A stretch of DNA of 64,000 nucleotides from Candidatus Poribacteria bacterium (GCA_965222225.1 CBDCTK010000002.1:1536001-1600000), one strand, 5' to 3'; shown: positions 1-48,600, counted from the stretch's first letter. A program made the numbers and translations. The notes: a model not told the origin generated them from the letters alone.

Positions 1-346
1 CAACCGACTGATTAAGGAGGGCGATAGCTATATGTAGGGTGCGCACTGCGCACCAGCCTTTGGGGTTGATTTCTTGTAGGGAGCGATCAAAGGAATGAAT
101 AATGACTGCGATAGCTATATGTAGGGTGCGATCAAACGAGTGGATAACGAGTGCGATAGAAATCCCCTGCGCACCAGCCTTTGGGGTTGATTTCTTGTAC
201 GGTGCAATCAAAGGAATGAATAATGACTGCGATAGAAAATCCTGATAGAAATCCTGACAGGTGTATAGCAGGCGACCACAAAAGCATGAAAAAGCCGCGC
301 CCAAAGTGACCGGAATTGCTTTGCCACCTATTATTCAAACAGGCTC
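1..346. mobile_element. Right part of a MITE-like element filled with REP and GA-hairpin repeats (left end outside the window)
   Basis: Ends in TTATTCAAACAGGCTC followed by TTA, matching the right ends at 41467, 42828 and 45277. Contains REP GTAGGGTGCGCACTGCGCACC (34-54) and 30-nt elements at 85, 130 and ~205. Confidence 0.7.
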
Positions 347-364
347 TTAACCCCTGATATCTTC

Positions 365-2140
365 ATGAACTTTCGAACAACCTTAATCATCTTCATTTTA
401 TTCGCTCTCTCTGCAGGCGGCTACTTCCTGTTTTGGGATGGCGATACAGAGGAAAGTTCTGATTCAAATGAGCAACCAAGAATCAGCGAAATCTACGAAC
501 TAAGCGTTGACACCGTGCAACGAATTCGGCTGTCGTTCAAAGATTCAGCCTACCGGCCTCTGTCCTTGGCAAAGGATGACAACGGCGAATGGCAGTTGAC
601 GGATCCCGTCATAGCTTATGCGAATAGGAGCAAAGTGTCCGAGATGCTGGACGATCTCCTAAACAAACGGGTCAAACGTACGCTGGAGGTCAGTGGACTT
701 TCCCGGTACGAACTAGATCCGCCGAACATCCGGATTGATTTGTGGAACGAAGGCGAGGCGCCAACCCAATCTTTCCTGATTGGCAATAAGACCGTCAACT
801 ACTCGGTCTACGCCAAAGAAGCCTCGGAATCCCACATCTTCCTAATCGAATCCAGCGCGCTCCAGGATCTCACAAAATCGCCCGCTGACATCAGGACGCG
901 CAACGCATTGAAGTTTGAACCGGAGGCGGTTAACGGAATCACGCTTGCGGTTGCTGGCGACGAGCCGATTCGCTGCCGCATGGAAGGTGAGGCGGAGTGG
1001 CGGATGGTGGCGCCTATTCAGGTCAAAGGCGATGCAAAAGAGATTCGCTCGGTTTTGGATGCGCTGCACCTGTTGAAAGTGGCGGAATTTACAAAAGACG
1101 GCGCCATCAATCTGGCAGAATACGGTCTTGAGGTACCGCGGATCCGCGTAACCCTCCAACTGGGGGGCGAATCGAAGGAATTGCTAGTCGGATCGGACAT
1201 CCTAAATGCAACGCGAATCTATGTTAAGCCCGGCGCGCGTGATGCCGTCTATGCGGTCAACAGGGAGATTTATGCTACTTTGAACAAGACGGTCTTCGAT
1301 CTCCGCGGCAAACGCGTCATCGACTTTCAGCGGACCGCAACCAATCGCTTCGAAATCCAAAGACAGGGGCAGGCAAAGATTGTCTGCGCGAAAGACTTGA
1401 AAGGTAATTGGCAGATTGAAGAACCGATTGCCCTGAAAGCAGACGCGGAAATTGTGGATGACATCCTTTTTGGCGTTGACTCACTCAAAGCGGTCGAATT
1501 TGTGGCGGAACAGCCGACAAGCCTAAGCCGTTACGGTCTAGATGCTCCGTCGCTTCAAGTCTCATTCTTCCCGCTAGACGCGGAGCCCGCCGTCTTACTG
1601 CTCGGGAAAATCAAAGGTGATAAGGTCTATGCGAAAGTCAAGAATGCCAAGCGTGTCCTCCTAGTGAAAAGCGACCTGCTAGAGCTTATCGGGTCGGGGA
1701 TTGCGGGGCTCCGCGATAAACAGGTTCTTCAATTTGAGAGTGATGACGCATTTAAACTCAGCTTACGACACGGTGACGTACAACTGACCTGTCAAAAGCA
1801 GGGGGTGAGCTGGCGGCTCGTTTCGCCTGTGCAGGAGGACGCGAACAATGGCGCCGTGAATAGCATGATTTATCGACTCGGTGGCTTGAAAGCCGATAAA
1901 TACTTGGCATCGGCGCCGGGCCTCAACGTCACACGCCTTAACAAACCGGAGGTGCAAGCCACTGTCACCTTAAATAATCTGAAGGAATTCACATTGCAAA
2001 TCGGGATGGCGAATGAACACGACCAACGCTACGCCCGTCTCCGCGCTACGCCGGATACGGTTTTTCTGCTTGAACCCTCGATCTCGGACGAACTCAGAAA
2101 AACCGTCGCCGACCTTCGCCAAGAAAGCAGTGGCTTGTAG
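365..2140 (+). CDS. DUF4340-domain membrane-anchored protein (three tandem repeats)
   Basis: N-terminal TM helix; three modules of type W.L..P....A....V..L...L..L......YGL..P...I.L....L.IG......Y......VF.V. Confidence 0.8.
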   Translation: MNFRTTLIIFILFALSAGGYFLFWDGDTEESSDSNEQPRISEIYELSVDTVQRIRLSFKDSAYRPLSLAKDDNGEWQLTDPVIAYANRSKVSEMLDDLLNKRVKRTLEVSGLSRYELDPPNIRIDLWNEGEAPTQSFLIGNKTVNYSVYAKEASESHIFLIESSALQDLTKSPADIRTRNALKFEPEAVNGITLAVAGDEPIRCRMEGEAEWRMVAPIQVKGDAKEIRSVLDALHLLKVAEFTKDGAINLAEYGLEVPRIRVTLQLGGESKELLVGSDILNATRIYVKPGARDAVYAVNREIYATLNKTVFDLRGKRVIDFQRTATNRFEIQRQGQAKIVCAKDLKGNWQIEEPIALKADAEIVDDILFGVDSLKAVEFVAEQPTSLSRYGLDAPSLQVSFFPLDAEPAVLLLGKIKGDKVYAKVKNAKRVLLVKSDLLELIGSGIAGLRDKQVLQFESDDAFKLSLRHGDVQLTCQKQGVSWRLVSPVQEDANNGAVNSMIYRLGGLKADKYLASAPGLNVTRLNKPEVQATVTLNNLKEFTLQIGMANEHDQRYARLRATPDTVFLLEPSISDELRKTVADLRQESSGL

Positions 2141-2152
2141 CCAGTGGAAGTT

Positions 2153-2460
2153 TGTAGGATCAACCGAGTGGATAACGAGGGCGATAGTCTTGTAGTGAGC
2201 TATATGTAGGGTGCGATCAAAGGAATGAATAATGACTGCGATAGAAATCCCCTGCGCACCAGCCTTTGGGGTTGATTTCTTGTAGGATCAACCGAGTGGA
2301 TAACGAGGGCGATAGTCTTGTAGTGAGCTATATGTAGGGTGCGATCAAAGGAATGAATAATGACTGCGATCAAGCGACCGGATAGGGAGCGCGATAGTCT
2401 TGTAGGGAGCGATCAAGCGAGTGGATAACGAGGGCGATAGTCTTGTAGTGTGGGATCAAG
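2153..2460 (+). repeat. REP / GA-hairpin repeat cluster
   Basis: About six GATCAA-N17-GCGAT(AG) units, GTAG REP halves and a ~128-bp internal duplication. Confidence 0.85.
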
Positions 2461-2647: not shown

Positions 2648-2657
2648 TTTTTTACCC

Positions 2658-3659
2658 ATGCCTGCAAATCTGCCGCCCGAATACTACAAACTTAAACACC
2701 AACTCGAAGCCGCCAAGACGGACGAGGAACGCCTATCGTTGCTTGAAGAGATGCTCCGCATTACGCCTAAGCACAAAGGCTCCGAGAAAGTGATTTCCGA
2801 TCTTCGGCGACGAATCGCCAAGCTGCGTAACGCCCCTGACAAAAAGGGCGCGACTAAACGACATAGCCACCTCATCCCCAAACAGGGCGCGGGACAAATC
2901 ATACTACTTGGGGCACCGAACGTCGGAAAATCCCGGTTTCTAGCGAGTTGCACCAACGCCAAACCCGATATATCGCGCACTCCTTTCACTACACGTGAAC
3001 CGGCAGTCGGCATGTTAAACTACGAGAATATCCAGTTTCAAATCATTGATACGCCACCGGTGACTGCCGACTTCGTACAACCCGAAATCCTCGATCTCGC
3101 CAGAAATTCAGACATACTACTGATTATTGTCAACCTCGGTGGCGACGACGTGTTGGACGAGGTTGGGGTCGTGACATCCAAACTAAAAGCCGCCAAAATT
3201 GTGATTGCCCGGGAGGTCCATGACGACGGAGTAGACGAGAACAGTTCCTCTACCGAGAGCAGTTCAAGCAAACCGGCTCTAATTGTTGCGAACCAAATAG
3301 ACGTCCCAAACGCCTCTGACCGGCTGGAAATTCTGAGTGAATTTTATGGCGAAACCTTTGAGATTTATCCTCTGTCTGCCGCCACTGGCGAAGGACGCGA
3401 GCACTTGGAGAAAGCAATCTACGACAAACTGGAAATCCTGCGAGTGTACACCAAATCCCCCGGAAAACGCGTCGATCGCGACGATCCGATTGTGCTGCCG
3501 ATGGGCAGCACGGTAATAGATGCCGCCATGAGGCTGCATCGTGACTTCGCCGCGAACCTGAAGTTCGCCCGTGTCTGGGGTGTCAACTGGCACGATGGAC
3601 AATCCGTTAGTCGTGATGACCACGTCCACGATGGCGACATCTTGGAATTCCACATATAG
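2658..3659 (+). CDS. DRG/OBG-family GTP-binding protein with C-terminal TGS domain
   Basis: MPANLPPEY start, PKHKGSEK, G1 GAPNVGKS, FTTREP, DTPP, NQID, SA; TGS-type HRDFA..LKFARVWG...GQ.V..DH...DGDILEFH. Confidence 0.88.
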   Translation: MPANLPPEYYKLKHQLEAAKTDEERLSLLEEMLRITPKHKGSEKVISDLRRRIAKLRNAPDKKGATKRHSHLIPKQGAGQIILLGAPNVGKSRFLASCTNAKPDISRTPFTTREPAVGMLNYENIQFQIIDTPPVTADFVQPEILDLARNSDILLIIVNLGGDDVLDEVGVVTSKLKAAKIVIAREVHDDGVDENSSSTESSSSKPALIVANQIDVPNASDRLEILSEFYGETFEIYPLSAATGEGREHLEKAIYDKLEILRVYTKSPGKRVDRDDPIVLPMGSTVIDAAMRLHRDFAANLKFARVWGVNWHDGQSVSRDDHVHDGDILEFHI

Positions 3660-7519: not shown

Positions 7520-7852
7520 GTAGGGTGGGATCAAACGACCAGCTTCTTTCCGCGTTTCTGAACTATATGTAGGGATCAACTGAGTGGATAACGAAGGCGA
7601 TAGTCTTGTAGTGTGCGATCAAGGAAGCGAATAGCGACCGATCAAGGAAGCGAATAGCGACCGATCAAGGAAGCGAATAGCGACCGCGATAGAGATCTTC
7701 TAGGGAGCGATCAAAGGAATGAATAATGACTGCGATAGCTATATGTAGGGTGCGCACTGCGCACCAGCCTTTGGGGTTGATTTCTTGTAGCGATCAAGGG
7801 AATGGATAATGACCACGATAGAACTCCCATAGAAATCCCCTGCCCACCATTC
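7520..7852 (+). repeat. REP / GA-hairpin cluster including a 23-bp triple tandem (7617-7692)
   Basis: (GATCAAGGAAGCGAATAGCGACC)x3 then GCGATAG; REP at ~7745; an inverted REP lies nearby at ~7980-8000. Confidence 0.85.
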
Positions 7853-9078: not shown

Positions 9079-9530
9079 GGCGCCCACTATGTAGGGTGCG
9101 ATCAACCTATATGTAGGGTGCGCACTGCGCACCAGCCTTTTTTCATAGTCATCAACTTCACGACCCTCTTGTAGCGCGAAGCGCACGGACTAATATAAGG
9201 TGCGATCAACCTATATGTAGGGCGGGATCAAGCGAATGGATAATGAGCCGGATGGGCTATCGCGTTCGCTATTCACTCACTTGATCGATAGAACTCCCCC
9301 ATCCTTTTTTTACAATTGTTTGGTTTATCTGTAGGAGCGATCTCCGAATCGCGACTCTCCCGATCGCCTACCCACTCCGGAAGAGCGGCACGTCGATAGT
9401 TGTAGTTGTAGGGTGGGCACTGCCCACCATCCTTATGGTAATGGCTCCTAATGCAGTGCGGATGGAGATGGTGGGCGGTGGATCTCTATTGCAGTCATTA
9501 TCCATTCCTTTGATGGGTGCGTCCATTGTT
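9075..9530. repeat. REP cluster downstream of the RAYT remnant
   Basis: GTAGGGTGCGCACTGCGCACC, GTAGGGTGGGCACTGCCCACC, the doublet GTAGGAGCGATCTCCGAATCGCGACTCTCCCGATCGCCTAC, and GA-hairpin units on both strands. Confidence 0.85.
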
Positions 9531-9569: not shown

Positions 9570-9965
9570 CTACTCTCCCACATTACTTTCGATGCGACTG
9601 AAATCGGGGATATGTGGATGGATATCATTACATGTACAACACCAATCCGCCGGATACCCTCCTCTTTTTACCCATTTATGAAAACTTGAGGGTGCCCACT
9701 GATGCGGACATTGAGCGTACCCGTGCCTCACAGGGTTATAATGGATGTAATCGAGATGGATCTGAAAATCCGCTTCGTCTCGAAGGGCATGTTCCCAAAA
9801 CCGACGTTGCCAAATGTTGCGCTCTCGGTGTTTTCGGCGGGAATTAGATTTGTCTTGTTCTAACCGGGGTGGTGGGAGAGATTTTGTGAATAGTGCTTTC
9901 AGCCTACCGACGCGACCCTCCCGATCGCCTACCCGCCCCGGAAGAGCGGCACGTCGATAGTTGTA
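9570..9965 (-). pseudogene. rayT: REP-associated tyrosine transposase (RAYT/TnpA-REP) with internal deletion
   Basis: N-terminal NYRRAALPG joined to the C-terminal half IWQRRFWEHALRDEADF..HLDYIHYNPVRHG...P..W..SSFH..V..G.YP.DW. The central HUH segment and a normal start codon are missing. Confidence 0.85.
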
Positions 9966-10795
9966 GGGTGCGATCAACCTATATGTAGGGTGCGATCAAA
10001 GGAATGAATAATGACTGCGATTAACCTATATGTAGGGTGCGCACTGCGCACCAGCCTTTGGGGTTGATTCCACCATCCTTTGTAGGCGGAGCCTCTTGCT
10101 CCGCCGCTGCATTTGCCCAACCCGAATCGAAAGTCGCGATTCGCAGATGGAATGCACAAAGACTATCGCGCTCATTATCCATTCGCTTGATCGCACCAGC
10201 CTTTTCATAGTCATCAACTTCACGACCCACTTGGAGCGCGATAGAACTCTTACCATCCTTTTTACAATTGTTTTCTTTGGTTTATCAGTAGGAGCGATCT
10301 CCGAATCGCGACTCTCCCGATCGCCTACCCGCTCCGGAAGAGCAGCATGTCGATAGTTGTAGTTGTAGGGTGCGCACTGCGCCCCATCCTTTATACAATT
10401 GTTTTGTTTGGTTTATCTGTAGGAGCAATCTCCGAATCGCGACTCTCCCGATCGCCTACCCGCCCCGGAAGAGCGGCATGTCGATAGTTGTAGTTGTAGG
10501 GTGCGATTAACCTATATGTAGGGATCAACTGAGCGGATAGCGAAGGCGATAGTTCTTGTAGGGTGGGCACCGCTCACCCTCCTTTCTATGCAGAGCATCC
10601 TGCTCCGCCGCTGCATTTGCCCAACCCGAATCGAAAGTCGCGATTCGCAGATGGAATGCACAAAGACTATCGCGCTCATTATCCATTCGCTTGATCGCAC
10701 CAGCCTTTTCATTGTCATCAACTTCACGGCCCTCTTGGAGCGGCGACGCGCACGGGATTTACTATCGCGGTCGCTATCCGCTCCCTTGATCCACA
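9960..10795. repeat. REP / GA-hairpin / composite-element cluster upstream of the RAYT remnant
   Basis: Multiple GTAG REPs, two copies of the CGCCGCTGCATTTG...AAGACTATCGC module, duplicated RAYT 5' fragments and HD-gene 3' fragments. Confidence 0.85.
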
Positions 10796-34200: not shown

Positions 34201-37200
34201 ATGACCAAGGACAGCAGCAATAAGATTTACACAATCACTATTACCGACCTGAGCGTGCTCGGCGCCGGAGGCGACTATGTGCTCCAAGTTTTGGCGCACG
34301 ACTCCAAAGCCGCGCCGGATGTCGAAGCGGAAGATCCCGCGCTCGGCGTTGCCGCCAATGTCGATAACTTTACGCCTCCGCCGAACATTACCATTGACGG
34401 CAGGGGCGGGGGAATGGGCCTCGCCGACTTTATGGCGGCTCACCCCCTCGGATACCGCATCGCCATGTCGGACAACAATATGTTCCCGTTCTCGATGAAT
34501 GCGCCCGGCGTACTCATGGGTGATATCACGGTTCAGATTGATGGCGGAACGTTGGCTGACGATTTGGTGATGATTGACGGCGCGCGGCACGACTTTAGTA
34601 TCGTCGCCAGCACCTCGACCACCGGTGAGGGCGATCGCCCCGCCAGTGGTACTGTTACCAAGCGTAACGGCAGCGTCGCGTTTGATCTCGTGAATCTCGC
34701 TATTGACCGTATACCGCCGGTAATCAGCGTCCTGACGCCGACCGAAGATGCCGAGGTCAGTTCGCTCCCGACAATCCACGCCATTTACAACGATGGCGCG
34801 GGATACGGGATCGCCGTTCTCTCGGACGATGCGCTGGATGTCGCCGCGAATGTCGAGATCCTCGTCACACGCTTGAATCCGCCGAATGAAAGCGCGATTC
34901 CCGTCAATCAGGACGAGCTTGACGACGCTGATGCCGAGGTCGTCTACTCCCCCGACGATGCGCTTGTCGGCGGCGCCTATCGCACCGATGTCTCCGTCAC
35001 CGATAAGTGGGGCAACAGAAGCACCGCCGCCGGTGAGTTCACCGTGGTCGGCACGCTTCCGTCCGTCACAATCCTGTCGCCGATGGAAGGCAGCCTGTCG
35101 GAAGACGGTATGCCGCTTGTTAGCGCGGTGATAACCGGAACCGGAACGTTGGATGTCGTCTTTATGATTAACGGTGAGGCGATGGATGCCCAGATGGACG
35201 GTAAATATCTGAGGTATACGCCCGAATCGCCGCTAGCGGAAGGCGAACACTCCGTGTCTATTCAAGTCGGCGATGCCGACGGCAAAATGGCGGATGCCTC
35301 CGTAATCTTTACGGTCGACTATCCGGAACCTGATATGACACCGCCAGTCGTCACACAGGTCAGTCCGCAGGGAACCGTATGGGGAGCTAACGTGACACTG
35401 TCTGTAACGGCTGTCGACGACCAATCCGGAGTCGCAAGCGTATCTATCGCCCTTGACGGCGGGGATGCGGTCGAAGGCGCCAGCCGCGACGTGGAAGGCC
35501 TCACGCTCGGTCAGCACACCGCTACCGCTACCGTCACCAATGGCGACGGGTTCTCCGACGAATACAGTTGGACGTTCTCGATTGCACTTGATGTGGAAGC
35601 GCCAACCATCGCGACGACATCGCCGCTGGGTGTTGTGCGAACAACTACACCGACCGTAACCGTTGGAGCTACCGATCTATCCGGCATCGCCTCGATTGAA
35701 ATCGCTGTTACGAATAGCAACGGCGACGCGGTTGATGGCGATACGGCTATGGACGAGAGCGGAACCGCCGCATCGTTAGTCCCGGCAGGCGGCTTGGCGA
35801 ACGATACCTATTCTGTTGCCGCCGTAGTCACTGACAACGCGGGCAACGTCGCGAGCACCGGTTGGAGTTTCACCGTTGAACACAGCTACGACACCACGGG
35901 CCCGAGCATTGATGTTTACTCGCCGCAAGGCGTTGTTCGCATCGATATGCCGACAATCGGCGTAACTGCGTCTGATGTCAGTGGCACCGCAGAGCAGGGA
36001 CTGTCGGGCATAGCGAGTATAGCAATCTCCGTGGCAGCTAGCGACGGCACTGCGGTCGGCGGTACGTCCGAGTATGACGGCGCATCGTCTGCTAGGTTCA
36101 TCCCGAATGCCGGCTTGGCGAACGATACCTATACGGCTACTGCTGTTGTCACCGATAATAGTGGCAATGAGACGAGTGCCGCCTGGAACTTCACCGTGGA
36201 AGTTGTCATGGATGAAATGTCGCCAATCATCAACGCGACATCGCCGCAGGGCACCATCCGCACCAACAGGCCGCGGATAGATGTATCCGCCACGGACGAT
36301 ATGTCCGGCATTGCGTCTTTCGTCATTCGCGTCGTGCGCAGCGACTTCGTCCGAATAGATGGCAATCTAACCTACGAGGGTGGCACCAAGGCGTCCTTGA
36401 CCCCTGCCAACGCCCTGAGAAACGATACCTACTCCGTGGCTGTCGATGTCACCGATAAGGCAGGCAATGTGACGAACGTGAGCTGGAGTTTCACCGTTCA
36501 AGTTGATGCTACGCCTCCGGTGTTTGGCACCAACTCCCCCATGGGAATCGTCAGGGACGACATGCCGAGAGTCAGCGTGTCTGCGATTGATGATGAATCC
36601 GGTGTCGCGAGCATTGAGATTCGCGTGCTCAACAGCGCCTTCCAGAGAATCGGCGGTCCGCACACCTATGAGGGTGGTACCGCCGCTGCCTTTGTCCCGG
36701 AGCGAGCGCTGCCTAACGGTACCTATACGGTTGGCGCGACAGCCACCGATAAGGCGGGGAACAGTTCGGACGCGACGTGGACCTTCGCTATCGAAGCCGA
36801 CCACACGCCGCCGACCGTCAATTCCACGTCGCCGCAAGGCATCATTCGCGACGACACGCCGCGTGTCAGCGTCTCCGCAACGGACGACATCTCCGGTATC
36901 GCGAGCATTGAGATACGTGTCCTGAACAGCGCGTTCGTACGAATCGCAGGACCCACCACGTTTGAGGGCGGTACCGTCGGCTTCTTCAACCCGACGAGTC
37001 CGATGAGGAACGACACCTACACTGTTGGTGTGAAGGTGACCGACAAAGCCGGCAACACCACCGACGCCGATTGGGTCTTTACAATCGAAGTCGATGAGGT
37101 GCCTCCGACTATCGGCGACACGGCACCGCACGGCATAATTCGCACGGCGCAGCCTCGGGTAACCGTATCCGCGACCGACGACTTGTCCGGGATCAGGAGC

Positions 37201-37980
37201 TTCTCGATTCGTGTGGTTGACGCCGCGTTTAACCGCGTCGCGGGACCCACAACCTTCCAAGGTGGAACCTTCGCGAGTTGGTCGCCGTCCGCCGGCATGG
37301 CTAACGGCGTTTACTCCGTAGGCGCGGATGTGACCGACAAGAGCGGAAATGTCGCCAGCACGGGCTGGAGTTTCACCGTCGAAGTGGATACCGTTGAGCC
37401 GAGCATCGTGCATACCTCGCCAGCGGGCAGTGTGCGCCCGGAGAATCCAATCATCTCCGTCTCCGCCACGGACAATCTGTCGGGTATCGCGAGTATCGTA
37501 ATCTCGTTGAGAGACAGCAACCAGAGCGCTGTTCCAGGTCGGACGGTCTTTGAGGGTGGCACGATTGGAACCTTTGTCCCGTTAGGAGCGTTGGACTACG
37601 GAACGCACTATGTTGGCGTCAGAGTCTCGGATAAGGCGGGTAACGTTGCGAATGCGACGTATAGCTTTACCGTCGAATCAGCGGACGGTGTCGCCGTGCT
37701 GAATGCGAGAAACTTCCCGAACCCCTTCGCCGGTGCGACAAAAATTGCGTTCACGTTGACCCGAAGCTCCGAGGTCAGTATCGAAATCTTTGATATTTCG
37801 ATGCGTCCTGTTTGGAACATGAGTCGCAGGACGATCCAGGCGACAAAAGAGCACGTCATCGGATGGGACGGTACAACCACCGGCGGCGAAAAGTTGGCGC
37901 GAGGTGTATACTTCTGCCAGATTATGGTACACGATAGCCTCAACCCGCAATACGCCATCCTCAAGATGGCAATCAAGTAA
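28225..37980 (+). CDS. Giant secreted Ig-rich surface protein (invasin/Big_1-like, PKD, tandem Ig-like repeats, FlgD-Ig C-terminus)
   Basis: GGAGG RBS; signal peptide; DNGDGTYTATYT motifs; PKD FDGSGS.D...Y.WDFGDG; about seven ~97-aa SATDD.SGIASI...TDKAGN..W.FT repeats; NFPNPF...WDG...GE.LARGVYF. Confidence 0.88.
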   Translation: MNSLRGSTVWFLCCVTLAAGLMIAADGIVHAQSTESFTLDGTINDSDGVPAAGLSVEASGFPVKTVTDGNGYYSLPFFSLSRGKISVNDTIIITVEDRDEIVSVKNYVVTAADIAAVPQGATVPIQLSKLQTEVSTTALPADGSSIAIINVLIQVDGENVVGDTLSITADQGTVGGVTDNGDGTYTATYTAPELVLADDSTDTITITSTNTSETTATDVTLTPVPTLVSVAAEPSVYTAGSGEMGSITVSVSRGGNPVTDADISISRSRADGGNDTGAVGDLTNNGDGTYTATYTPSEMVGRVNLTASDSVSGAAGSTAVNVNAGPPANVVVTGTPTTVSSDGSGVVTVMVTDESGNPVGGQMPTGNADKGTVGDFTESDEPGTYTAPYTAPTVEEDGTDSITVAVGDTTGETTVDLTTEPAMMVGQLIVIGMVNKADGTGSVPGVNVEVSVNGTPIATTTTDDNGQYSVTHVDAGNNAASTGDIVTVVVTDGDGVERGDAMMVLANADLGGEPLVINVDTDIVSTTPVLAVTGTVYHEGGSLPVGAGLTVNVMNADTGITVSGTTDANGGYSVTLVGTAGSLAGGTGDTLNVTVMRDGAEIGSESKELSSDEVDVAHAVVDVKTGLKASTPTLVVTGTVYLLDSEIAAGPGLTVTVTNPDTGLEVSGTTGDDGTYSVTLVSTEGPAAETGDTVTVTVSADGEDMGSDSHTLSESEIGAGIVMVDVDSGLPAESAIFIVTGSVLLEDGMSPAPGGLTVTVENMNRPGTTWETVTEEGGGYNVSMVSAEMAVAATHDELVLQVTVMAGGEPVGTTSLTLTTEEVVATHIPDVDIRTTLIAEPSNQIIVLGTVTNPDGTPAGEGVEIRITLGMNPTRTLQTAAGGDYSTTYLDPNMPVVSVGDTLMVAVLDRVTGSAANETMTIASYHVIAGSVRFDMTLIPDDIAPTPVAASSQKFVQKTETVDFDGSGSTDNVGIDTYMWDFGDGNTADTMNASHQYANSGKYVVTLTVMDLAGNEASMSIEVFVDTVRLGGLSLNTLHAREVIEKIVSLAIARTDIGQSIGTEALIRMMRNDPAVQAAVIKAVNTILPPGILPGQLLGAELPLIFEDYENIDLENFGNAVTARPGSGMGILESKDGGFERIVNGNKLDLYLAAPRGDVGSVTFRFDGAGFDPLSQVGTQDAREVVAGMTMPHTFQLEEEQAALLLPSWHGLGDSSGIFSAVNLRYASDELPPEFANLISRGRQVPVNPADYASAPLSPMDINGQVVWSGEVGIESGKIYYYYYEIELSTPVPLVLGEGGATMLSRYVVPDPRNLQIEDRGMIDAIFTMQVQDAIAPFLNPFLEAILAGQDISTVNVEDILTGENLGMLLGALTGASYPIYMDIMTSMNPQMVSVFTVPMSTEDQSVWYTTIDLSTIQDGMHTVDANAFDSEGVQIDNRPVFGKAFMLDRTAPEIDISVDNGQNSGMYMRDDGVLITTGLITPDPNQMASLMLNASTMDSTEDLGDFMFQIIRYGGDPSAQMANAWVPLLDPTIVPMLDGLSLNTFDQFIASAFNDLLTLNALAGLPAGMLQPFEMMIRGMNNDPALIVGEYGLRAVAMDDVGNLSSYTAPIRVNIVPPDRDQALIANINIGDCNKDGDLEDPFESQAPGETTIFANTRSLTLTVETPNRTPHPLTGIVVQYKTAHGTGAWKDIATIDAPGDVEWNIADVNALIDGGGDDPHIYVRAVATNALAISDPDPAAPTVKLDAGVCPVQPEHVAVNIVPAGTNDETGGYCGIITVYGYTAARTIPDLASVRFDLTMADGSSITIGEATESWVFTELPTNDLVIVLGDLLNLILNEGMGSSAPEATYRKWSITFNTASLVDSLDAPYVVSATMIGADGMEYVPIAGGTDDFLLHNGDVEVGTTITAVADAYGTLEMTDGGYVQLGGITAGGYDTPVAILTADPAAPDWRVDGISLVAHMRNDDGSKGGAVDVGEVTVEETVSVDMADMTKDSSNKIYTITITDLSVLGAGGDYVLQVLAHDSKAAPDVEAEDPALGVAANVDNFTPPPNITIDGRGGGMGLADFMAAHPLGYRIAMSDNNMFPFSMNAPGVLMGDITVQIDGGTLADDLVMIDGARHDFSIVASTSTTGEGDRPASGTVTKRNGSVAFDLVNLAIDRIPPVISVLTPTEDAEVSSLPTIHAIYNDGAGYGIAVLSDDALDVAANVEILVTRLNPPNESAIPVNQDELDDADAEVVYSPDDALVGGAYRTDVSVTDKWGNRSTAAGEFTVVGTLPSVTILSPMEGSLSEDGMPLVSAVITGTGTLDVVFMINGEAMDAQMDGKYLRYTPESPLAEGEHSVSIQVGDADGKMADASVIFTVDYPEPDMTPPVVTQVSPQGTVWGANVTLSVTAVDDQSGVASVSIALDGGDAVEGASRDVEGLTLGQHTATATVTNGDGFSDEYSWTFSIALDVEAPTIATTSPLGVVRTTTPTVTVGATDLSGIASIEIAVTNSNGDAVDGDTAMDESGTAASLVPAGGLANDTYSVAAVVTDNAGNVASTGWSFTVEHSYDTTGPSIDVYSPQGVVRIDMPTIGVTASDVSGTAEQGLSGIASIAISVAASDGTAVGGTSEYDGASSARFIPNAGLANDTYTATAVVTDNSGNETSAAWNFTVEVVMDEMSPIINATSPQGTIRTNRPRIDVSATDDMSGIASFVIRVVRSDFVRIDGNLTYEGGTKASLTPANALRNDTYSVAVDVTDKAGNVTNVSWSFTVQVDATPPVFGTNSPMGIVRDDMPRVSVSAIDDESGVASIEIRVLNSAFQRIGGPHTYEGGTAAAFVPERALPNGTYTVGATATDKAGNSSDATWTFAIEADHTPPTVNSTSPQGIIRDDTPRVSVSATDDISGIASIEIRVLNSAFVRIAGPTTFEGGTVGFFNPTSPMRNDTYTVGVKVTDKAGNTTDADWVFTIEVDEVPPTIGDTAPHGIIRTAQPRVTVSATDDLSGIRSFSIRVVDAAFNRVAGPTTFQGGTFASWSPSAGMANGVYSVGADVTDKSGNVASTGWSFTVEVDTVEPSIVHTSPAGSVRPENPIISVSATDNLSGIASIVISLRDSNQSAVPGRTVFEGGTIGTFVPLGALDYGTHYVGVRVSDKAGNVANATYSFTVESADGVAVLNARNFPNPFAGATKIAFTLTRSSEVSIEIFDISMRPVWNMSRRTIQATKEHVIGWDGTTTGGEKLARGVYFCQIMVHDSLNPQYAILKMAIK

Positions 37981-38148: not shown

Positions 38149-39117
38149 ATGATTCAGATGAAGCCGAAATTGATGCTGGGGTCATTCCTGGTTTTAATTG
38201 CGCTACTGGCTTTCGCTCCAATCTATTCTGCCAACGCCGTTGACGCTGCTCCATACCTGCGGCTGGGGGCGGGCGCCCAATCCATAGGTGTCGGCGGCGC
38301 GGTCACCGCAACGGTTGATGATGCCACCGCAACCGTCTGGAACCCCGCAGGTTTAGCTTCGGTGAAGAATACGACGTTTACCGTTTCCACGTTCAACATG
38401 GGGTACGACGCAAGACAGAGTTTCCTCGGTATCGCCAAAAACCTGGGCAACGGCTCGATAGGTTTCGCTGTCTCGGGTGTTACCGTCGATGGTATTGAAA
38501 ACCGTGACGGAAACGATATTAGACGTGGGACGTTCCGACAAAACTCAAACGCGATTTCACTCTCGTACGGACACATGTTCGACAATTTTAGCATCGGCTT
38601 TGGCGTCGGCGCTCTCACGGATGTGTATAGTTTCGATGCCGAGCGCATCAATGGATTTCGTGGCGCCGATATCGGATTCATCGGCCAACGCGTCCACACG
38701 ACCGACAGCGGAAAAGAAATTCCAATCTTCACCTACGGACTCGCCATCCGCAACCTCGGAAGTTCGTATAGCGGTTCGCACAGCGAAAGCGCCGTGCCCA
38801 TGCTTGTAGATGCGGGCGTATCATTTAAACTGCCGCGTAAGGGCGCAAAGGTCACCTTCTCGTTTGATGTCCAGCAGGAGTACGTGGAGCTGGACGAATC
38901 AACCACCAGCGCACGCATCGGCGCGGAATACAAGATTTCAAAACGATTTGCGATTCGCGGCGGGGCGCGAGGCACACAAGACCACCAGAGTTTGTTCGCG
39001 GGCTTCGGTGTCAATGTCGGTGCACTCCAAGTCGATTACGCACTCCAAGATGCGCCGGCAAGTCGGCTGAGCGACTCGGGCACGACGCATCATGTATCGA
39101 TGTCCTATAGTTACTAA
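38149..39117 (+). CDS. PorV/PorQ-family (UPF0164) outer-membrane beta-barrel
   Basis: YLRLGAGAQSIGVGGA.TA..DDATA..WNPAGL; GAEY....FAIRGG; GFG......VDYA; ends H.VSMSYSY. Confidence 0.85.
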   Translation: MIQMKPKLMLGSFLVLIALLAFAPIYSANAVDAAPYLRLGAGAQSIGVGGAVTATVDDATATVWNPAGLASVKNTTFTVSTFNMGYDARQSFLGIAKNLGNGSIGFAVSGVTVDGIENRDGNDIRRGTFRQNSNAISLSYGHMFDNFSIGFGVGALTDVYSFDAERINGFRGADIGFIGQRVHTTDSGKEIPIFTYGLAIRNLGSSYSGSHSESAVPMLVDAGVSFKLPRKGAKVTFSFDVQQEYVELDESTTSARIGAEYKISKRFAIRGGARGTQDHQSLFAGFGVNVGALQVDYALQDAPASRLSDSGTTHHVSMSYSY

Positions 39118-39161
39118 TACTAATGAACGGGCAATACTATAACAGTAAGGAGAACCACCTC

Positions 39162-40001
39162 ATGAAAGCAATGAAATCTGCCGTGAGTTTAGGACTTATC
39201 CTCTTTCTCTGCGTGTCGTTGAGTGGTGTTCTGTTGGTGTTGGACGCCTCGGCGAAAATCACGCCGAAAGAGACCGATGTCCCCACGGGATTCTACGCCA
39301 TTCAAAAAGGCGATACGCTATGGCACCTCGCCAAGAACTATCGGAATGATCCCCTATTGTGGCGGGAATTCGAGAAATATAACATCTTCACCAATCCGCA
39401 CCTAATCTACCCGAAGGAAAAACTCCAAGTGTCCGCGATGTGGGGGTTCCCCGGTGTCGCAATGCCCGAGCCGCCGGCAATGGTTGCCGAAATGGCAGCA
39501 AAGTCTGACTTGGATATGCTTAGAGCGAATTTTGAAGCCCATCTCATGAGCACGGCAGCCTCCCTTGAGGAAATCGGTGCCGAAGTTTCCGAAATTCACC
39601 AAGAGATTCACGGCATTCAGGAATCCATAACGGGACTGAAAAGCGCGATGGACATGGGCGGTGAGTCGCTCTCAATGGCGAACATGGAGAACTCGAAAGC
39701 CATCGCCGGTCTGAACGACTCCGTAATGGGTATCGGTAAGAAGTTCAAAGCGCACATCATGGAGATGGAGACGGCACACATGGAGCACGTCAAGCACGGC
39801 GAGCACATTGACGGTCACCTTGAGAATATTGAGAAGACGCTCGCCGGAATGAAGGCAGTGCAAGACGATACCCCCGGAAAGGTCGACAAGATTCTCACTC
39901 CCCCGGCGAAGAAAAAGTACAAAACACGTCCGATCGCCTTCCTGACAGCATTGGTTGGCGGAGCCGCGTGGGTAGCCGTGAACTCTCTCGGCGATCGCTA
40001 A
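39162..40001 (+). CDS. LysM-domain protein with coiled coil and C-terminal membrane anchor
   Basis: Signal peptide; YAIQKGDTLWHLAKNY...LW......N...NPHLIYP.EKL; basic patch then hydrophobic tail; AAGGAG RBS. Confidence 0.8.
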   Translation: MKAMKSAVSLGLILFLCVSLSGVLLVLDASAKITPKETDVPTGFYAIQKGDTLWHLAKNYRNDPLLWREFEKYNIFTNPHLIYPKEKLQVSAMWGFPGVAMPEPPAMVAEMAAKSDLDMLRANFEAHLMSTAASLEEIGAEVSEIHQEIHGIQESITGLKSAMDMGGESLSMANMENSKAIAGLNDSVMGIGKKFKAHIMEMETAHMEHVKHGEHIDGHLENIEKTLAGMKAVQDDTPGKVDKILTPPAKKKYKTRPIAFLTALVGGAAWVAVNSLGDR

Positions 40002-40024
40002 TAACCGAACCGGCACAAACGACC

Positions 40025-40067
40025 AAAAAGCAGGGCAAATGCTCAACGGCATCCGCCCTGCTTTTTT
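40025..40067 (+). terminator. Intrinsic terminator, possibly bidirectional
   Basis: AAAAAGCAGGGC...GCCCTGCTTTTTT. Confidence 0.85.
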
Positions 40068-40104
40068 CGTTTCAACATTCTATAGTCATCTATATTCATA
40101 TTGT

Positions 40105-40260
40105 AGTATGTAGGGTGCGATCAACCGAGCGATCAAGGAAGCGAATAGCGACCGCGATAGAGATCTTCTAGCGAAGGATCAAGTAGTATGTAGGGTGCGC
40201 ACTGCGCACCAGCCTTTGAAAGCCCTAGCGAAGGATCAAGCGATCAAGCGAGTGCGATAG
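40105..40260 (+). repeat. REP / GA-hairpin cluster
   Basis: One complete 30-nt unit at ~40131, truncated units, REP at ~40190. Confidence 0.8.
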
Positions 40261-41054: not shown

Positions 41055-41467
41055 AAACCTGTTTGAAAAGTACAGTTTGTAGTATGTAGGGTGCGATCAA
41101 CTGAGCGATCAAGGAAGCGAATAGCGACCGATCAAGCGAGTGAATAGCGAGGGCGATAGAAATCCCTTAACTCGACTCAGGAGATTTGTAGGGTGTGCAC
41201 TGCGCACCAGCCTTTAAAGCCCCACCGCGGGATCAAGGGAGCGAATAGCGACTGCGATAGATATCCCTTTTAAAGCCTGGCTGAAAAATACAGTTTGTAG
41301 GGTGCGATCAAAGGAATGAATAATGACTGCGATCAACCGACTGAATAGCGAGTGCGATAGAAGTCCGATAGAAGATCCCATAGGTATGAATCAGCCAACA
41401 ATGAAAACATGGAAAAACGTCCTCAAACTCTCAAAATGGCTTTGCCACCGATTATTCAAAGAGTCCC
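41055..41467. mobile_element. MITE-like element with imperfect TIRs and TTA target duplication, filled with REP and GA-hairpin units
   Basis: TTA|AAACCTGTTTGAAAA ... TTATTCAAAGAGTCCC|TTA. Confidence 0.7.
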
Positions 41468-42235: not shown

Positions 42236-42828
42236 GAACCTGTTTGAAAAGTACAGTTTGTAGGATCAACCGACTGAATAGGGAGGGCGATCAAGCGAGT
42301 GAATAGCGAGTGCGATAGAGTTTTTCAGGTGTATAGCAACGCCGAATCGCACAAATCAAAGCACCAGAGTGCGATCAACCGACTGAATAGGGAGGGCGAT
42401 AGTCTTGTAGGATCAAGCGAGTGAATAGCGAGTGCGATAGTCTTGTAGGATCAACTGAGTGGATAACGAAGGCGATAGTCTTGTAGGATCAACTGAGTGG
42501 ATAACGAGGGCGATAGTCTTGTAGGATCAACCGACTGAATAGCGAAGGCGATAGTCTTGTAGGATCAACCGACTGAATAGGGAGGGCGATCAAGGGAGCG
42601 AATAGCGACTGCGATAGAGTTTTTCAGCTGTATAGCAACGCCGAATCGCACAAATCAAAGCCCCAGAGTGCGATCAAGCGAGTGGATAGCGAGTGCGATA
42701 GAAATCCTACCAGCCTTTGGAAATCCCATAGATATCCTACAGGTATGTAGCAGCCAAAAATGAAAACATGAAAACCCTTTTCTACAAATGCTCAAAAATA
42801 GCTTTACTATCTATTTTTCAACAGGCTC
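42236..42828. mobile_element. MITE-like element with TTA duplication, containing a 38-bp-period GA-hairpin array
   Basis: TTA|GAACCTGTTTGAAAA ... TTTTCAACAGGCTC|TTA. Confidence 0.75.
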
Positions 42829-45042: not shown

Positions 45043-45056
45043 CGGTTACGGGTTAT

Positions 45057-45277
45057 TGTAGGCAGGATCAAGCGATCAAGCGAGTGGATAGCGAGTGCGA
45101 TAGAGATTCTTCCTCTAGTATGTAGTGTGCGATCAACTGAGCGATCAAGGAAGCGAATAGCGACTGCGATAGCTATATGTAGGGTGCGCACTGCGCACCA
45201 GCCTTTGGGGTTGAGTTCTTCTAGGGTGCGATCAACTGACCAAAAATCGCTTTGGCACCGATTATTCAAACAGGCTC
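45057..45277 (+). repeat. REP / GA-hairpin cluster ending in a MITE right end
   Basis: 30-nt units, REP at ~45179, TTATTCAAACAGGCTC|TAA. Confidence 0.75.
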
Positions 45278-46623: not shown

Positions 46624-47430
46624 TTATCCACTCCGTTTCAGTCTTCCCGTTCGTTTCGCATACTGTTCCCCCAAATGGAAAATCCAAAAACCGAGCGGGA
46701 TTGTTATGATGCCAATTATCAGCAGCAAAATGAGGTTGCCCGCTTGGTCGGCAATCGACGAATTATCAAGCATTGCTGCCCGAATGGACCTAAGCGCATA
46801 CGTCGCAGGGGAAATTCGAGATAACGGTTGAATCCATTCCGGCAATACCTCAATCTCGTAGTAGACGCCGGAAATCAGCAAAACAACGGATTGGAGGATT
46901 CCCGTTGCTGCCTGACCCTTTTCGGGCGAAAGCAGTGGAAAAATCGCCGCCATCAAGCCGATCCCGATAAAGGAAACGCTCGCGATGAGCACAGTCACTG
47001 CCAGCGTCAACCAATTGGCGTGACTTAGATCGATGTGCTCTCTGAAAAAGAGTGGCATCACCGCCAACACAATCCCTGTCCGCAACAGACCATACAGAAT
47101 AGCAAAGAGACACGAGCCGACAAGATGTGTGATGCGGTAAATAGGTGCCATAAACGTGTACTCAATCGTGCCCTCCCAGCGTTCCCATGTTATGGCATCG
47201 CTTACCTCTCTCATCATAATTGAAAGGAATCCCCAAATCAATGCGCCGATCACCAAGTAAAGCACGTCTTTTGCGGAGCCGCGCCCGACCATGATTAACC
47301 CAATCGTTAATGCATTGACGATTGAATAGGTGAAAAAGAGAATCTCCCAGTTGAGATACCGCTTGAGAAGATTGAAATTGCGTTCAATGAAAGCATAGGA
47401 AACCACAGTTTCACGTTTGATATCGAACAT
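46624..47430 (-). CDS. ABC-2 type exporter permease
   Basis: Multiple TM segments; WERWEGTIEY.FMAP; SGVYY.IEVLP.W.Q.LS..SPATY. Confidence 0.88.
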   Translation of the reverse strand: MFDIKRETVVSYAFIERNFNLLKRYLNWEILFFTYSIVNALTIGLIMVGRGSAKDVLYLVIGALIWGFLSIMMREVSDAITWERWEGTIEYTFMAPIYRITHLVGSCLFAILYGLLRTGIVLAVMPLFFREHIDLSHANWLTLAVTVLIASVSFIGIGLMAAIFPLLSPEKGQAATGILQSVVLLISGVYYEIEVLPEWIQPLSRISPATYALRSIRAAMLDNSSIADQAGNLILLLIIGIITIPLGFWIFHLGEQYAKRTGRLKRSG

Positions 47431-47433
47431 TGT

Positions 47434-48285
47434 CTACTCCACATCCTCCGCCAAATCTTTTCCGGTAAGCTCGATAAACACATCCTCAAGCGTAACCTGT
47501 TTGTCTTGCATGCTAATCTGGGCTTTGAGTTCCTTCGCCGTACCCGTGGCGATAAACTTGCCCTTGTCAATAATTGCAATGTGATCGCATAGGGATTCGG
47601 CTTCGTCCATATCGTGCGTAGTCAATAACACAACAACATCGTGCTCTTCCCGAATCTCATTAATCAACCGCTGTACATCGCGTTTCGATTTTGGATCTAA
47701 GCCTGTGGTGGGCTCATCAAGCAGCAGCAGAATCGGCGAGGTAAGGAGTGCGCGAGCGATAGCAATCTTTTGTTGCATGCCTCGTGAAAGATCTTCCATC
47801 GACTCATTCATCCGAGTAGAATCAAAGCCAAGCCGAACCAGAATCTTTTCAGCCTTGCCCCGAGCTTCGCCTGCCGAGAGATCGTAAAGCCGCGCGGCAT
47901 ACAGTAAGTTCTCTGTCGAAGACAGCCGCTTGAAAAACGAGGCCTCCACAGAAACCCGGTTAATCATCTGTCGAAACTTGAAGCTGTCGTTGACTACATC
48001 GTATCCAAGAAAGCCAATCTGCCCGCTATCAGGAAGTAGCAGTGTAGAAATCAATCGAATCAGAGTCGATTTTCCAGATCCATTGGCGCCGAGGATACCG
48101 TAAATTTCTCCCATTCCAACCTGAAACGAAACATTGTCAACTGCTTTGATGACCTCCTTCTCCCGTCTTAACTGATGACGGATTTTCTGGGAGAACGTCA
48201 ATTTACTATCTTGTGGGTACGGTTTCTTCCGGTAGAAATGTTTAACGAGTCGGTCAACTACCAAACCGTTTGATGTAATTATCAC
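47434..48285 (-). CDS. ABC transporter ATP-binding protein
   Basis: GANGSGKST, LSRGMQQK, LLLDEPT, TTH. Confidence 0.92.
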   Translation of the reverse strand: MIITSNGLVVDRLVKHFYRKKPYPQDSKLTFSQKIRHQLRREKEVIKAVDNVSFQVGMGEIYGILGANGSGKSTLIRLISTLLLPDSGQIGFLGYDVVNDSFKFRQMINRVSVEASFFKRLSSTENLLYAARLYDLSAGEARGKAEKILVRLGFDSTRMNESMEDLSRGMQQKIAIARALLTSPILLLLDEPTTGLDPKSKRDVQRLINEIREEHDVVVLLTTHDMDEAESLCDHIAIIDKGKFIATGTAKELKAQISMQDKQVTLEDVFIELTGKDLAEDVE

Positions 48286-48367
48286 AATATTCCTTTAGCC
48301 CGTCCCTTCATATTTGAGATATGCAGGTTTCCTTTCCGACTAACCACTAATCTCGACTTTGTACATT

Positions 48368-48600
48368 TGTAGGATCAACTGAGTGGATAACGAAGGCGAT
48401 AGTCTTGTAGGATCAAGTGAGTGAATAGCGAGTGCGATAGAGATCCCCCGCCCACCATTTCTTGTAGGGTGCACACTGCGCACCAGCCTTTGAGAGTGCC
48501 AGCGGCGATCAAGCGAGCGAATAGCGACACTGCGATAGAGATCCCCTGCGATCAAATGAGTGAATAGCGAACGCGATAGAACTCCCATAGAAATCCCAAA
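48368..48600 (+). repeat. Last REP / GA-hairpin cluster in the window
   Basis: About four 30-nt units and REP GTAGGGTGCACACTGCGCACC. Confidence 0.8.

Follow-up and report, generated by a model that had tools for sequence, protein, structure and literature searches.

A stretch of DNA from a sponge symbiont, Candidatus Poribacteria bacterium (GCA_965222225.1 CBDCTK010000002.1:1536001-1600000; genome G000 below), repeats a 30-nt motif, GATCAA-ab-GA-cd-GRATA-ef-GA-gh-GCGATAG, whose four dinucleotides vary from copy to copy. The locus raises the question of what is conserved in such an element, its letters or its fold, and by what process it spreads.

Copies, unit and lineage distribution

Searching with this pattern and tolerating up to two mismatches, we found 59 matches in the window (the whole 64-kb stretch analysed), of which 42 are exact, 10 differ at one position and 7 at two positions; 45 lie on the plus and 14 on the minus strand. 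They extend from 85-114 to 48550-48579, the pattern search finding none from 48600 to 64000, and 100 dinucleotide-preserving shuffles of the window yielded no match. The first-pass annotation had put the number at about 60, and the coordinates and dinucleotides of the six examples it quoted were all correct. The copies, with the features in which they are set, are as follows.

85-235, plus strand: three copies (85-114, 130-159, 206-235), 130-159 within a GTAG-tagged REP1 hairpin
2158-2440, plus strand: six copies (2158-2187, 2215-2244, 2286-2315, 2343-2372, 2368-2397, 2411-2440), those at 2343 and 2368 fused via a common GCGAT
7574-7821, plus strand: four copies (7574-7603, 7663-7692, 7709-7738, 7792-7821), by pattern match
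9257-9515, minus strand: two copies (9257-9286, 9486-9515), on one flank of a RAYT remnant
9570-9977, minus strand: the remnant of a RAYT (REP-associated tyrosine transposase) gene, C-terminal part only; context rather than a demonstrated partner
9994-10023, plus strand: one copy with two mismatches, on the opposite flank of the RAYT remnant, in REP1 context
10163-10192, minus strand: one copy, terminal in a composite repeat of about 124 nt
10523-10552, plus strand: one copy, immediately after a GTAGG tag
10667-10791, minus strand: two copies (10667-10696, 10762-10791), by pattern match
12763-12852, plus strand: two copies (12763-12792, 12823-12852), 12763-12792 nested within an older copy
14046-14125, plus strand: two copies (14046-14075, 14096-14125), 14096-14125 nested within an older copy
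14271-14300, minus strand: one copy, by pattern match
14867-15031, plus strand: three copies (14867-14896, 14929-14958, 15002-15031), by pattern match
15151-15180, minus strand: one copy, by pattern match
16328-16357, plus strand: one copy, by pattern match
16484-16750, minus strand: three copies (16484-16513, 16608-16637, 16721-16750), 16608-16637 at 124-nt spacing in a composite repeat
18897-18926, plus strand: one copy, splitting an older copy whose halves lie on both sides
19051-19523, minus strand: four copies (19051-19080, 19174-19203, 19298-19327, 19494-19523), each the end module of a tandem composite repeat of about 124 nt
28001-28030, plus strand: one copy, upstream of a 3251-aa ORF
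40131-40160, plus strand: one copy, nested within an older copy
41130-41360, plus strand: four copies (41130-41159, 41231-41260, 41306-41335, 41331-41360), the last two fused via GCGAT
42264-42701, plus strand: ten copies of 30 nt each, starting at 42264, 42289, 42373, 42411, 42449, 42487, 42525, 42563, 42588 and 42672; 42373-42592 is an array with a 38-nt period, the 30-mer plus a spacer TCTTGTAG
45074-45172, plus strand: two copies (45074-45103, 45143-45172), by pattern match
48373-48579, plus strand: three copies (48373-48402, 48411-48440, 48550-48579), the first two absent in related-strain contigs

Genome-wide, the same threshold gives 983 copies (489, 337 and 157 with zero, one and two mismatches) representing 560 distinct sequences, and 788 of 980 fall outside ORFs in a crude ORF set, so the element is high-copy and mostly extragenic. 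The full unit measures about 37 nt, the 30-mer being followed by a conserved 3' tail, A(G/A)ATCCC. This tail, a 3-bp foot and the nesting of many copies in other repeats had been missed in the first-pass annotation. The element is restricted in lineage: of the 176 genomes from the phylum, those with over 150 copies all belong to two genera, g1 (10 of 10 genomes) and g4 (4 of 4). An Rfam covariance-model search of positions 1-48600 returned nothing at E up to 1, and a further Rfam search gave a single hit at the level of chance (E 3.6; 16.8 bits, the threshold being 75 bits); the element, proposed as new by the earlier reading, is thus not a described Rfam family.

A covarying hairpin on one strand

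The fold is under constraint. It had been proposed that ab pairs with gh and cd with ef, and with duplicates collapsed to the 560 distinct copies, the four predicted pairs are precisely those that rank highest by mutual information among 435 column pairs (columns 11-19, 1.06 bit; 8-22, 0.76; 7-23, 0.68; 12-18, 0.32; next best, 0.14). Pair counting in the 59 window copies (38 distinct) finds 97.0% of cells paired, and their covariation score of 0.611 compares with 0.201 ± 0.027 in shuffled sets, none of 500 shuffles reaching it; sliding the partner by one to three columns lowers the score to at most 0.101. RNAalifold, run independently, returned the identical structure. From the base upwards, this comprises an invariant 3-bp foot, ATC/GAT (A2-T28, T3-A27, C4-G26), a 2x2 loop AA/GC, a 2-bp stem, a tandem G.A/A.G, a second 2-bp stem and an apical loop of five bases, GRATA, in which the G is closed by the A. 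Watson-Crick pairing therefore runs for only 3, 2 and 2 pairs, split by the 2x2 loop and the tandem G.A.

The non-Watson-Crick columns are near-invariant (9/21 as G/A in 513 of 560 distinct copies, 10/20 as A/G in 529 and 13/17 as G/A in 530). Outer and inner stems, by comparison, mix almost freely around these constant letters, 40 of the 48 combinations of eight outer-stem and six inner-stem versions being present. The tandem G.A/A.G pairs are most likely sheared: a Y-GA-R context favours that geometry, and it predominates here, whereas A-GA-T never occurs.

The fold is also strand-specific. Across 2240 pair cells in the distinct copies, we counted 1793 Watson-Crick, 277 G.T, 56 A.C and 114 other combinations, in line with the earlier remark that most deviations are G.T wobbles; the excess of G.T over A.C implies that only a single strand folds. 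The positions that accept G.T are 7-23 (131 cells) and 12-18 (95); next to the G.A pairs it is scarce (24 and 23). Under RNA parameters, 265 of 412 distinct copies (64%) have the model as their minimum-energy fold; the number falls to 36 of 412 once the 3' dinucleotides are permuted between copies, and to 0 of 412 on the complementary strand. The corresponding mean model energies are -4.16, +0.98 and +1.29 kcal/mol. Predicted stability is marginal (Z-scores against shuffles of -1.35 to +0.66 with RNA parameters), and only one of six tested copies has the full model as its minimum-energy fold when DNA parameters are used. Covariation, wobble asymmetry, the comparison of folding energies and RNAalifold together back the proposal that the fold rather than the sequence is kept, on a single strand.

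Mobility, orientation and competing explanations

The element is mobile. The spacer that holds the 2158-2440 cluster contains six copies in G000; its orthologues in sister species contain four copies, oppositely oriented, in G001 and 1, 1, 0, 0 and 0 in five others; in G002 and G008, the same two-gene spacer is only 22 and 29 nt long, without the element. In related-strain contigs (three runs from two studies), 48374-48447, which spans two copies, is replaced by seven letters that restore an intact REP. The flanks of 619 of the 983 copies are unique among copies, and for 465 of those 619 (about half of all copies) the outer flanks are unique in the genome. Insertion is biased in its target: an 'empty' paralogous site was found for 270 copies, and among the 177 with a short replaced segment, 166 segments begin with G, with a net gain of 33-36 nt. 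Counted as distinct contexts, the segment begins with G in 106 of 115 and is 1-4 nt long in 111 of 115; this first G is the sole constant, and A-G-C/G is common before it. New copies are often hosted by other hairpin repeats (REP hairpins, ends of IS200-like elements) or by older copies, and part of the copy number reflects amplification of composite repeats.

Orientation is linked to strand composition. In 679 of 980 copies (about 69:31), the GA strand is the one with negative strand-balanced GC skew, a share reached by 0 of 5000 circular shifts; among copies in single-copy contexts, the figure is 317 of 462. Co-orientation with flanking same-direction genes is 280 against 233 (55:45), and the negative-skew share is 64% and 74% in the two gene strata. 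That orientation tracks GC skew and not gene direction points to a DNA-level process, which we favour over a role in mRNA. The G-rich strand is usually the leading strand; if that rule applies, the folding strand apparently lies on the leading-strand template, although genes in this genome do not follow the balanced skew (odds ratio 1.12), which leaves the rule uncalibrated here. In one g4 genome (G021), sampled skew agrees with element orientation in only two of five blocks, runs opposite to it in one and is near zero in two.

On this evidence, we judge it somewhat better than an even chance (about 55%) that the repeat is a miniature mobile element of DNA, non-coding and about 37 nt long, propagated by way of its GA-strand fold and present at high copy number in two Poribacteria genera only. 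The propagated entity would be the fold of the GA-bearing strand, which a trans-acting enzyme, we infer, reads as single-stranded DNA at the copying step. A new copy would enter at a G that follows A-G-C/G and take the place of 1-4 target letters, often within REP hairpins, IS200-like ends or older copies of the element, and some copies would later be carried inside larger composite repeats. More tentatively, the element may be structure-coded, its identity tag being the sheared tandem G.A rather than a sequence or palindrome, with a novel copying route and a life largely as a parasite of selfish hairpins (REPs, IS200 ends and itself). On this reading, insertion at G with letter replacement, and a polarity apparently opposite to that of IS608, would point to copying by an enzyme or route new to small repeats.

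The obvious candidates for the enzyme that reads the fold are Y1 HUH transposases, RAYT or IS200-like, and it is possible, if doubtful, that one of them does so; none can be assigned. G000 has five Y1 loci, and a copy of the element is found no more than 300 nt from 7 of 15 RAYT genes, compared with 20% for genes overall (p = 0.02). The ends of the IS200-like gene P0001 are GCCCC hairpins in every genus, even where the element is missing; a different GTAG REP flanks RAYT group A, and REP1 flanks RAYT group B. The remnant at 9570-9977 has intact, REP1-flanked syntenic orthologues in four sister species, some with an embedded element. In the three Y1 groups examined, the constant flanks are thus other hairpins, in which the nearby element copies are embedded; every Y1 group is missing from at least one g1 or g4 genome, and none shares the element's phyletic pattern. 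Since no Y1 gene in these groups has the element as its own flank, the link to RAYTs is unproven; these other flanking hairpins, the phyletic mismatch and an insertion footprint less precise than that of IS200/IS605 weigh against the first-pass suggestion of a RAYT-like nuclease as reader of the fold.

Such embedding could also mean that no enzyme recognises the hairpin itself and that the element is a passenger, an apical or internal module of REP/BIME-like mosaics and IS200-like ends, spread by the host's RAYT or TnpA or by recombination between repeats; its fold would then be conserved on other grounds, for instance because the host element's enzyme tolerates it. Sixteen of 100 REP1 instances (GTAGGGTGC...GCGCACC) hold a 38-39-nt insert, and 12 of 15 39-nt REP1 inserts carry the commonest variant, exact or with one change; copies sit at the same place inside an IS200-like end hairpin in three species, in tandem composites of about 124 nt and in 38-nt arrays with a GTAG-bearing spacer; GTAG lies within 5 nt upstream of about a quarter of copies, and array copy number differs between strains. 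We nevertheless consider this unlikely, because the 465 copies in genome-unique flanks carry all 8 x 6 stem types, flanking inverted repeats are not in excess (stem of at least 6 in 53 copies against 50 in the control), the element inserts within its own older copies and follows the G-target rule across 115 contexts, and a passenger has no need of G.A pairs and covarying stems.

A hairpin acting in transcripts, for instance by recruiting an RNA-binding protein or by signalling RNA processing or stability, with selection on each copy's RNA fold maintaining the covariation, would suit the G.U tolerance, the 64% agreement with the minimum-energy RNA fold, and a loop that fits a GNR(N)A-type pentaloop and may by analogy resemble phage boxB. 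Contigs from four RNA libraries hold elements, one spanning gene, repeat and gene; these contigs carry neither strand nor ends and are no proof of transcription. The slight co-orientation excess with genes is far outweighed by strand composition in both gene strata, density in divergent spacers (0.68 per kb) is similar to that in co-directional or convergent ones (0.75-0.92 per kb), copies turn over at a single spacer between species, and Rfam offers no match. A kink-turn or K-loop with an L7Ae-type binder was rejected, as the model lacks the three-base bulge by the tandem G.A and L7Ae-family PF01248 has no match in G000 (94.9% complete). We regard a role in RNA as improbable. Most implausible is a double-stranded DNA site for a protein dimer, for example of nucleoid or regulatory type: high copy number, intergenic placement and two conserved GA steps 11 nt apart would fit it, but the GA steps are direct and the surrounding letters inverted, a protein would exert no pressure for complementarity on variable positions that it does not read, and an asymmetry of G.T over A.C makes no sense in a duplex.

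Comparison with known small repeats

Among known systems, REPs and REPINs with their RAYTs (Nunvar 2010; Bertels and Rainey 2011, PMC3116915; Di Nocera 2013, PMC3733652; Quentin 2018, PMC6006769) resemble the element in being short (20-40 nt), high-copy, mostly intergenic hairpins that form clusters and mosaics and are specific to lineages; the form in which they are recognised is presumed to be single-stranded DNA. Published REP finders, in the portions of PMC6006769 and PMC3733652 that describe them, require at least seven fully paired stem bases with at most one mismatch, and for that reason would reject the element, as the first-pass annotation had anticipated for palindrome finders. The canonical descriptor, as given in part of PMC6006769, places GTAG or GTGG 0-2 nt 5' of the hairpin foot. 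In the element, counting GTAG alone, the nearest upstream tag ends 0, 1 and 2 nt before the 30-mer in 24, 18 and 16 of 983 copies, lies 4-5 nt upstream in 150 and is lacking within 40 nt in 589. A canonical tagged REP was therefore rejected: the element has no regular GT[AG]G tag, its longest uninterrupted Watson-Crick run is 3 bp against 7-20 in REPs, its conserved core is non-Watson-Crick (the tandem G.A) with freely varying stems, and no RAYT gene in the Y1 groups examined is flanked by it as its own repeat. This genome also contains REPs and RAYT genes.

Elements of the IS200/IS605 family insert with precision: they enter 3' of a fixed tetra- or pentanucleotide and neither remove nor duplicate target letters. 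Their subterminal hairpins, and those of derived MITEs, resemble the element in being imperfect and in showing a replication-related strand bias; a Y1 HUH enzyme reads them on a single strand, and this genome has an IS200-like gene with hairpin ends. The element differs in having one hairpin rather than two different ends, and in its target, which is constant only in a G with A-G-C/G ahead of it and gives up 1-4 letters to the new copy. This insertion footprint is not that of an IS200/IS605-derived miniature element. Its strand polarity may also be opposite: a lagging-strand-template bias is expected of IS200/IS605, as in the IS608 paradigm outlined in part of PMC6006769, whereas 69% of GA strands lie on the strand of negative balanced skew, which would be the opposite polarity if fork direction here follows the usual rule.

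The SDR4-6 repeats of Nostocaceae are reportedly hairpin-forming, with compensatory changes. As far as the available descriptions of SDRs extend, they share with the element a very small size, mobility with no known transposase and a habit of landing in other repeats, and are set apart by phylum and sequence. The portion of PMC5861425 consulted reports that SDR5 lands within HIP1 and that no SDR-like repeat was found outside Nostocaceae. Compared with the small selfish hairpin repeats of other bacteria, the element reads as an odd new variant, one held together partly by G-A pairs.

Copy number and conserved fold

Allowing at most two mismatches to the 30-nt pattern GATCAA-ab-GA-cd-GRATA-ef-GA-gh-GCGATAG (the G.A element, whose GA strand is the folding strand), we counted 59 copies in the window, 42 of them exact, with 45 on the plus and 14 on the minus strand and all within 85-48579; shuffled window sequences yielded no matches to the pattern. 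This bears out the first-pass annotation, which had put the number at about 60 and whose six quoted example copies are all correct. At the same threshold, the source genome (G000; 5.70 Mb in 2 contigs, 50% G+C, window at C2:1536001-1600000) contained 983 copies, 560 of them distinct. Across the phylum, 21 of 176 genomes had a match at no more than one mismatch, with counts above 150 confined to two genera: g1, which includes the source organism (10 of 10 genomes, 529-1216 copies each), and g4, which belongs to a different family (4 of 4 genomes, 184-202 copies each). The remaining seven genomes had 1-19 copies. Many identical 30-mers are common to g4 and g1, and the element reaches about 1000 copies per genome, or ~0.6% of the DNA. 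IMG/VR viral contigs contained no exact match to the pattern. In the first 2.45 Mb of contig C1 of a g4 genome (G021), the 48 exact copies listed form six long single-orientation runs, in several of which one variant predominates at regular spacing (e.g. 421 nt), suggesting regional amplification of larger units in this genus.

The stems originally proposed, ab with gh and cd with ef, correspond to column pairs 7-23 and 8-22 (outer) and 11-19 and 12-18 (inner) of the 30-mer. These are exactly the four top-ranking mutual-information pairs among all column pairs (in the order 11-19, 8-22, 7-23, 12-18), the next value lying five to seven times below the top three; as this was computed on the 560 distinct copies, the covariation holds after identical copies are collapsed. 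Pair counting on the window copies found 97% paired, with a covariation score of 0.611 against 0.201 +/- 0.027 in shuffles (0 of 500 reached it) and at most 0.10 when the partners were slid. RNAalifold, unprompted, returned the identical structure together with an invariant 3-bp foot (A2-T28, T3-A27, C4-G26). Among 2240 stem cells, 1793 were Watson-Crick, 277 G.T, 56 A.C and 114 other, in keeping with the initial observation that most deviations are G.T wobbles. The non-Watson-Crick pairs are themselves kept: G9/A21 in 513, A10/G20 in 529 and G13/A17 in 530 of the 560 copies.

The stems vary within limits, with exactly 8 outer and 6 inner versions, of which 40 of the 48 combinations were found. 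Positions 7 and 11 take A, C or G, position 8 takes C, G or T, and position 12 is limited to C or T, so that A almost never precedes either GA and T almost never follows it. The setting is Y-GA-R in roughly three of every four cases, a context that favours sheared tandem G.A pairs in both DNA and RNA. G.T is frequent at pairs 7-23 (outer) and 12-18 (loop-closing) but scarce next to the G.A pairs, a placement that looks structural rather than mutational. Under RNA parameters, the model was the minimum-energy fold in 265 of 412 distinct copies, versus 36 of 412 with permuted 3' dinucleotides and 0 of 412 for the complementary strand. The mean energy was -4.2 kcal/mol, z-scores against shuffles were not significant, and the predicted stability is modest. 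Under DNA parameters, just 1 of the 6 copies folded had the full model as its minimum-energy structure (~-1 kcal/mol), a weakly informative result because tandem G.A pairs may go uncredited in that parameter set. The element had been regarded as a candidate new structured repeat, and an Rfam search at gathering and E-value thresholds gave no usable match to a described family.

Unit boundaries, host repeats and composites

The full unit extends beyond the 30-mer. On its 3' side lies a conserved tail, mostly AGATCCC or AAATCCC and sometimes displaced one or two letters further on, while A-G-C/G is preferred on the 5' side. Scanning the genome for places where both flanks of one copy adjoin, we recovered 270 copies with an 'empty' paralogous site. 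In 177 of these, the replaced segment was 0-4 nt and the tail 5-10 nt, the remaining 93 having longer or shifted gaps. The short replaced segments began with G in 166 of the 177 (GCA, GCG, GC, GA, G, GG etc.) and in 106 of 115 once collapsed to distinct contexts, with a net gain of 33-36 nt. Several exact-junction models were also compared with the filled/empty pairs: insertion following GAT, duplication of GCGAT, a unit of 25 nt, and a tail paired with the 5' end. Each failed on some of the pairs, and no precise cut-and-paste model accommodates them all.

Several repeats act as hosts. The GTAG-tagged hairpin REP1 occurs in 100 strict-form instances genome-wide, of which 80 have a centre of 5 nt and 16 a 38-39-nt insert in place of 3 letters. 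Copies also occupy a second site in the REP1 3' arm, another GTAG REP, the hairpin at the end of an IS200-like element, and older copies of the G.A element itself, which are entered in either orientation at three internal positions, each preceding a G. Landing in hairpin loops as a general rule was rejected, as flanking inverted repeats show no general excess around the copies. Certain variants are carried in larger units, including REP1 carrying the commonest variant, tandem composites of ~124 nt, and arrays of 38-nt period in which TCTTGTAG is the spacer. Flanks are unique among copies in 619 of 983, and in 465 of these the outer 20-mers are single in the genome, with all stem types represented. 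Copies arise both by independent insertion and inside amplified composites. The repeats and other features of the window are as follows.

Features of the window
30-60, 9110-9135 and 10030-10055: examples of REP1 (GTAGG + GTGCGC / loop / GCGCAC)
10090-10195, 10590-10700, 16460-16640 and 19000-19530: ~124-nt composite, partly tandem, each unit ending in an antisense G.A element
9092-9112, 9200-9222, 9965-9990 and 10503-10520: truncated forms, the element's first seven letters joined directly to the module that complete copies normally have behind them; these could be deletion or excision footprints
9570-9977, minus strand: C-terminal remnant of a REP-associated tyrosine transposase (RAYT), 90.5 bits, model positions 71-144
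42320-42372 and 42620-42671: modules derived from IS200/IS605-type ends, gene-less copies of which are scattered in the window's spacers
2600-2657 and 19615-19735: runs of short tandem units of CCACT type (CCACTAA / CTCCACT) immediately 5' of genes, apparently simple-sequence tracts that could vary in length
21465-26948 (1827 aa) and 28225-37980 (3251 aa), plus strand: two giant ORFs, in a stretch nearly devoid of the G.A element
57669-57758, plus strand: selenocysteine tRNA gene (Rfam RF01852, 76.1 bits), from which the organism probably uses selenoproteins

Candidate partners and strand orientation

A RAYT-like nuclease had been put forward as a plausible reader of the fold. The source genome has five Y1 loci, of which an IS200/IS605-type gene, scoring above its NCBIfam threshold, is intact and the others are RAYT-like and partly broken. 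The intact gene (contig C2, 3080258-3080728) ends in GCCCC/GGGGC hairpins followed by ACAGGTG, and is kept in 25 of 41 related genomes. Syntenic orthologues of the window's RAYT remnant are intact in four sister species (G001, G002, G005 and G009), with REP1 hairpins on their flanks. The flanks of 22 loci of the type of P0001, an IS200-like Y1 gene of the source genome, and of 11 RAYT loci carry a constant hairpin particular to each group, and G.A element copies near Y1 genes sit within those hairpins. The element is mildly enriched near RAYT genes (7 of 15 vs 20%, p = 0.02), and no Y1 group shares its phyletic pattern. P0001 was suggested as a partner by inverted flanking copies in the source genome, and was set aside because its orthologues, in 25 of 41 genomes, have other constant ends. 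A single weak reverse transcriptase locus has no G.A element within 1.5 kb, and no L7Ae-family protein was found in the source genome. A search for the Y2 transposase family gave no hits, and carries no weight as its control was silent throughout.

Copy density per kb is similar across spacer types. Of 980 copies, 513 lie in spacers between genes of like direction, with those inside crude ORFs or in divergent or convergent spacers set aside; in these 513, the GA strand runs with the genes 280 times and against them 233 times. Orientation is tied instead to the GC skew of the surrounding coding DNA: with strand-balanced skew, the negative-skew strand is the GA strand in 679 of 980 copies, a value reached in 0 of 5000 circular shifts. 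The link persists within each gene-direction stratum and among single-copy-context copies (317 vs 145; n=462), and 13 of 17 large skew segments show it; the element's own G-richness would bias in the opposite direction. As gene direction does not follow balanced skew, the leading strand is not calibrated from it. Five 80-kb samples of the g4 genome G021 showed no clear relation between skew and orientation.

Turnover and comparison with known repeats

Turnover is evident in the spacer between the orthologues of window genes 365-2140 and 2658-3659 in nine species of genus g1.

Spacer length and G.A element copies in nine g1 species
G000: 517 nt, 6 copies (+)
G001: 900 nt, 4 copies (-)
G005: 127 nt, 1 copy
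G006: 312 nt, 1 copy
G003: 138 nt, 0 copies
G004: 334 nt, 0 copies
G009: 377 nt, 0 copies
G002: 22 nt, 0 copies
G008: 29 nt, 0 copies

At strain level, contigs from three RNA-library runs of two studies skip window positions 48374-48447, where 7 letters complete an ordinary GTAG REP hairpin, so that a closely related strain lacks these two copies. In the RNA-library contigs, read over their covered parts, G.A elements are present and bridged, but such contigs reveal neither strand nor ends nor level and do not prove transcription. Within 38600-40260, contig depth in one library was 376 across the two genes preceding the repeat cluster at 40131-40160 and 18 beyond it, whereas a second library has one contig spanning the cluster; the depths bear no further reading.

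The mechanism of the G.A element is only partly resolved, and the element accounts for much of the spacer expansion that sets these sponge-symbiont genomes apart from sister species. Small bacterial repeats are found and classified via Watson-Crick palindromes and sequence tags; here, a repeat is definable by a non-canonical fold while its stems vary freely. Its 48 stem versions around fixed G.A pairs constitute a natural mutagenesis series, with which its reader protein could be sought and shape recognition by single-strand DNA enzymes probed, and its hosts offer a clean case of small elements nested within other selfish hairpins. As far as the sources consulted extend, with the SDR elements, its closest precedent, compared by description only, the literature search returned no account of this family, no REP-like repeats from Poribacteria and no REPs with conserved G.A pairs. 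IS200/IS605 derivatives insert precisely, a feature that the G.A element fails; it is also without the canonical REP features tested (tag, paired stem and REPtron), but in its behaviour it is like REP or SDR-type miniature repeats.
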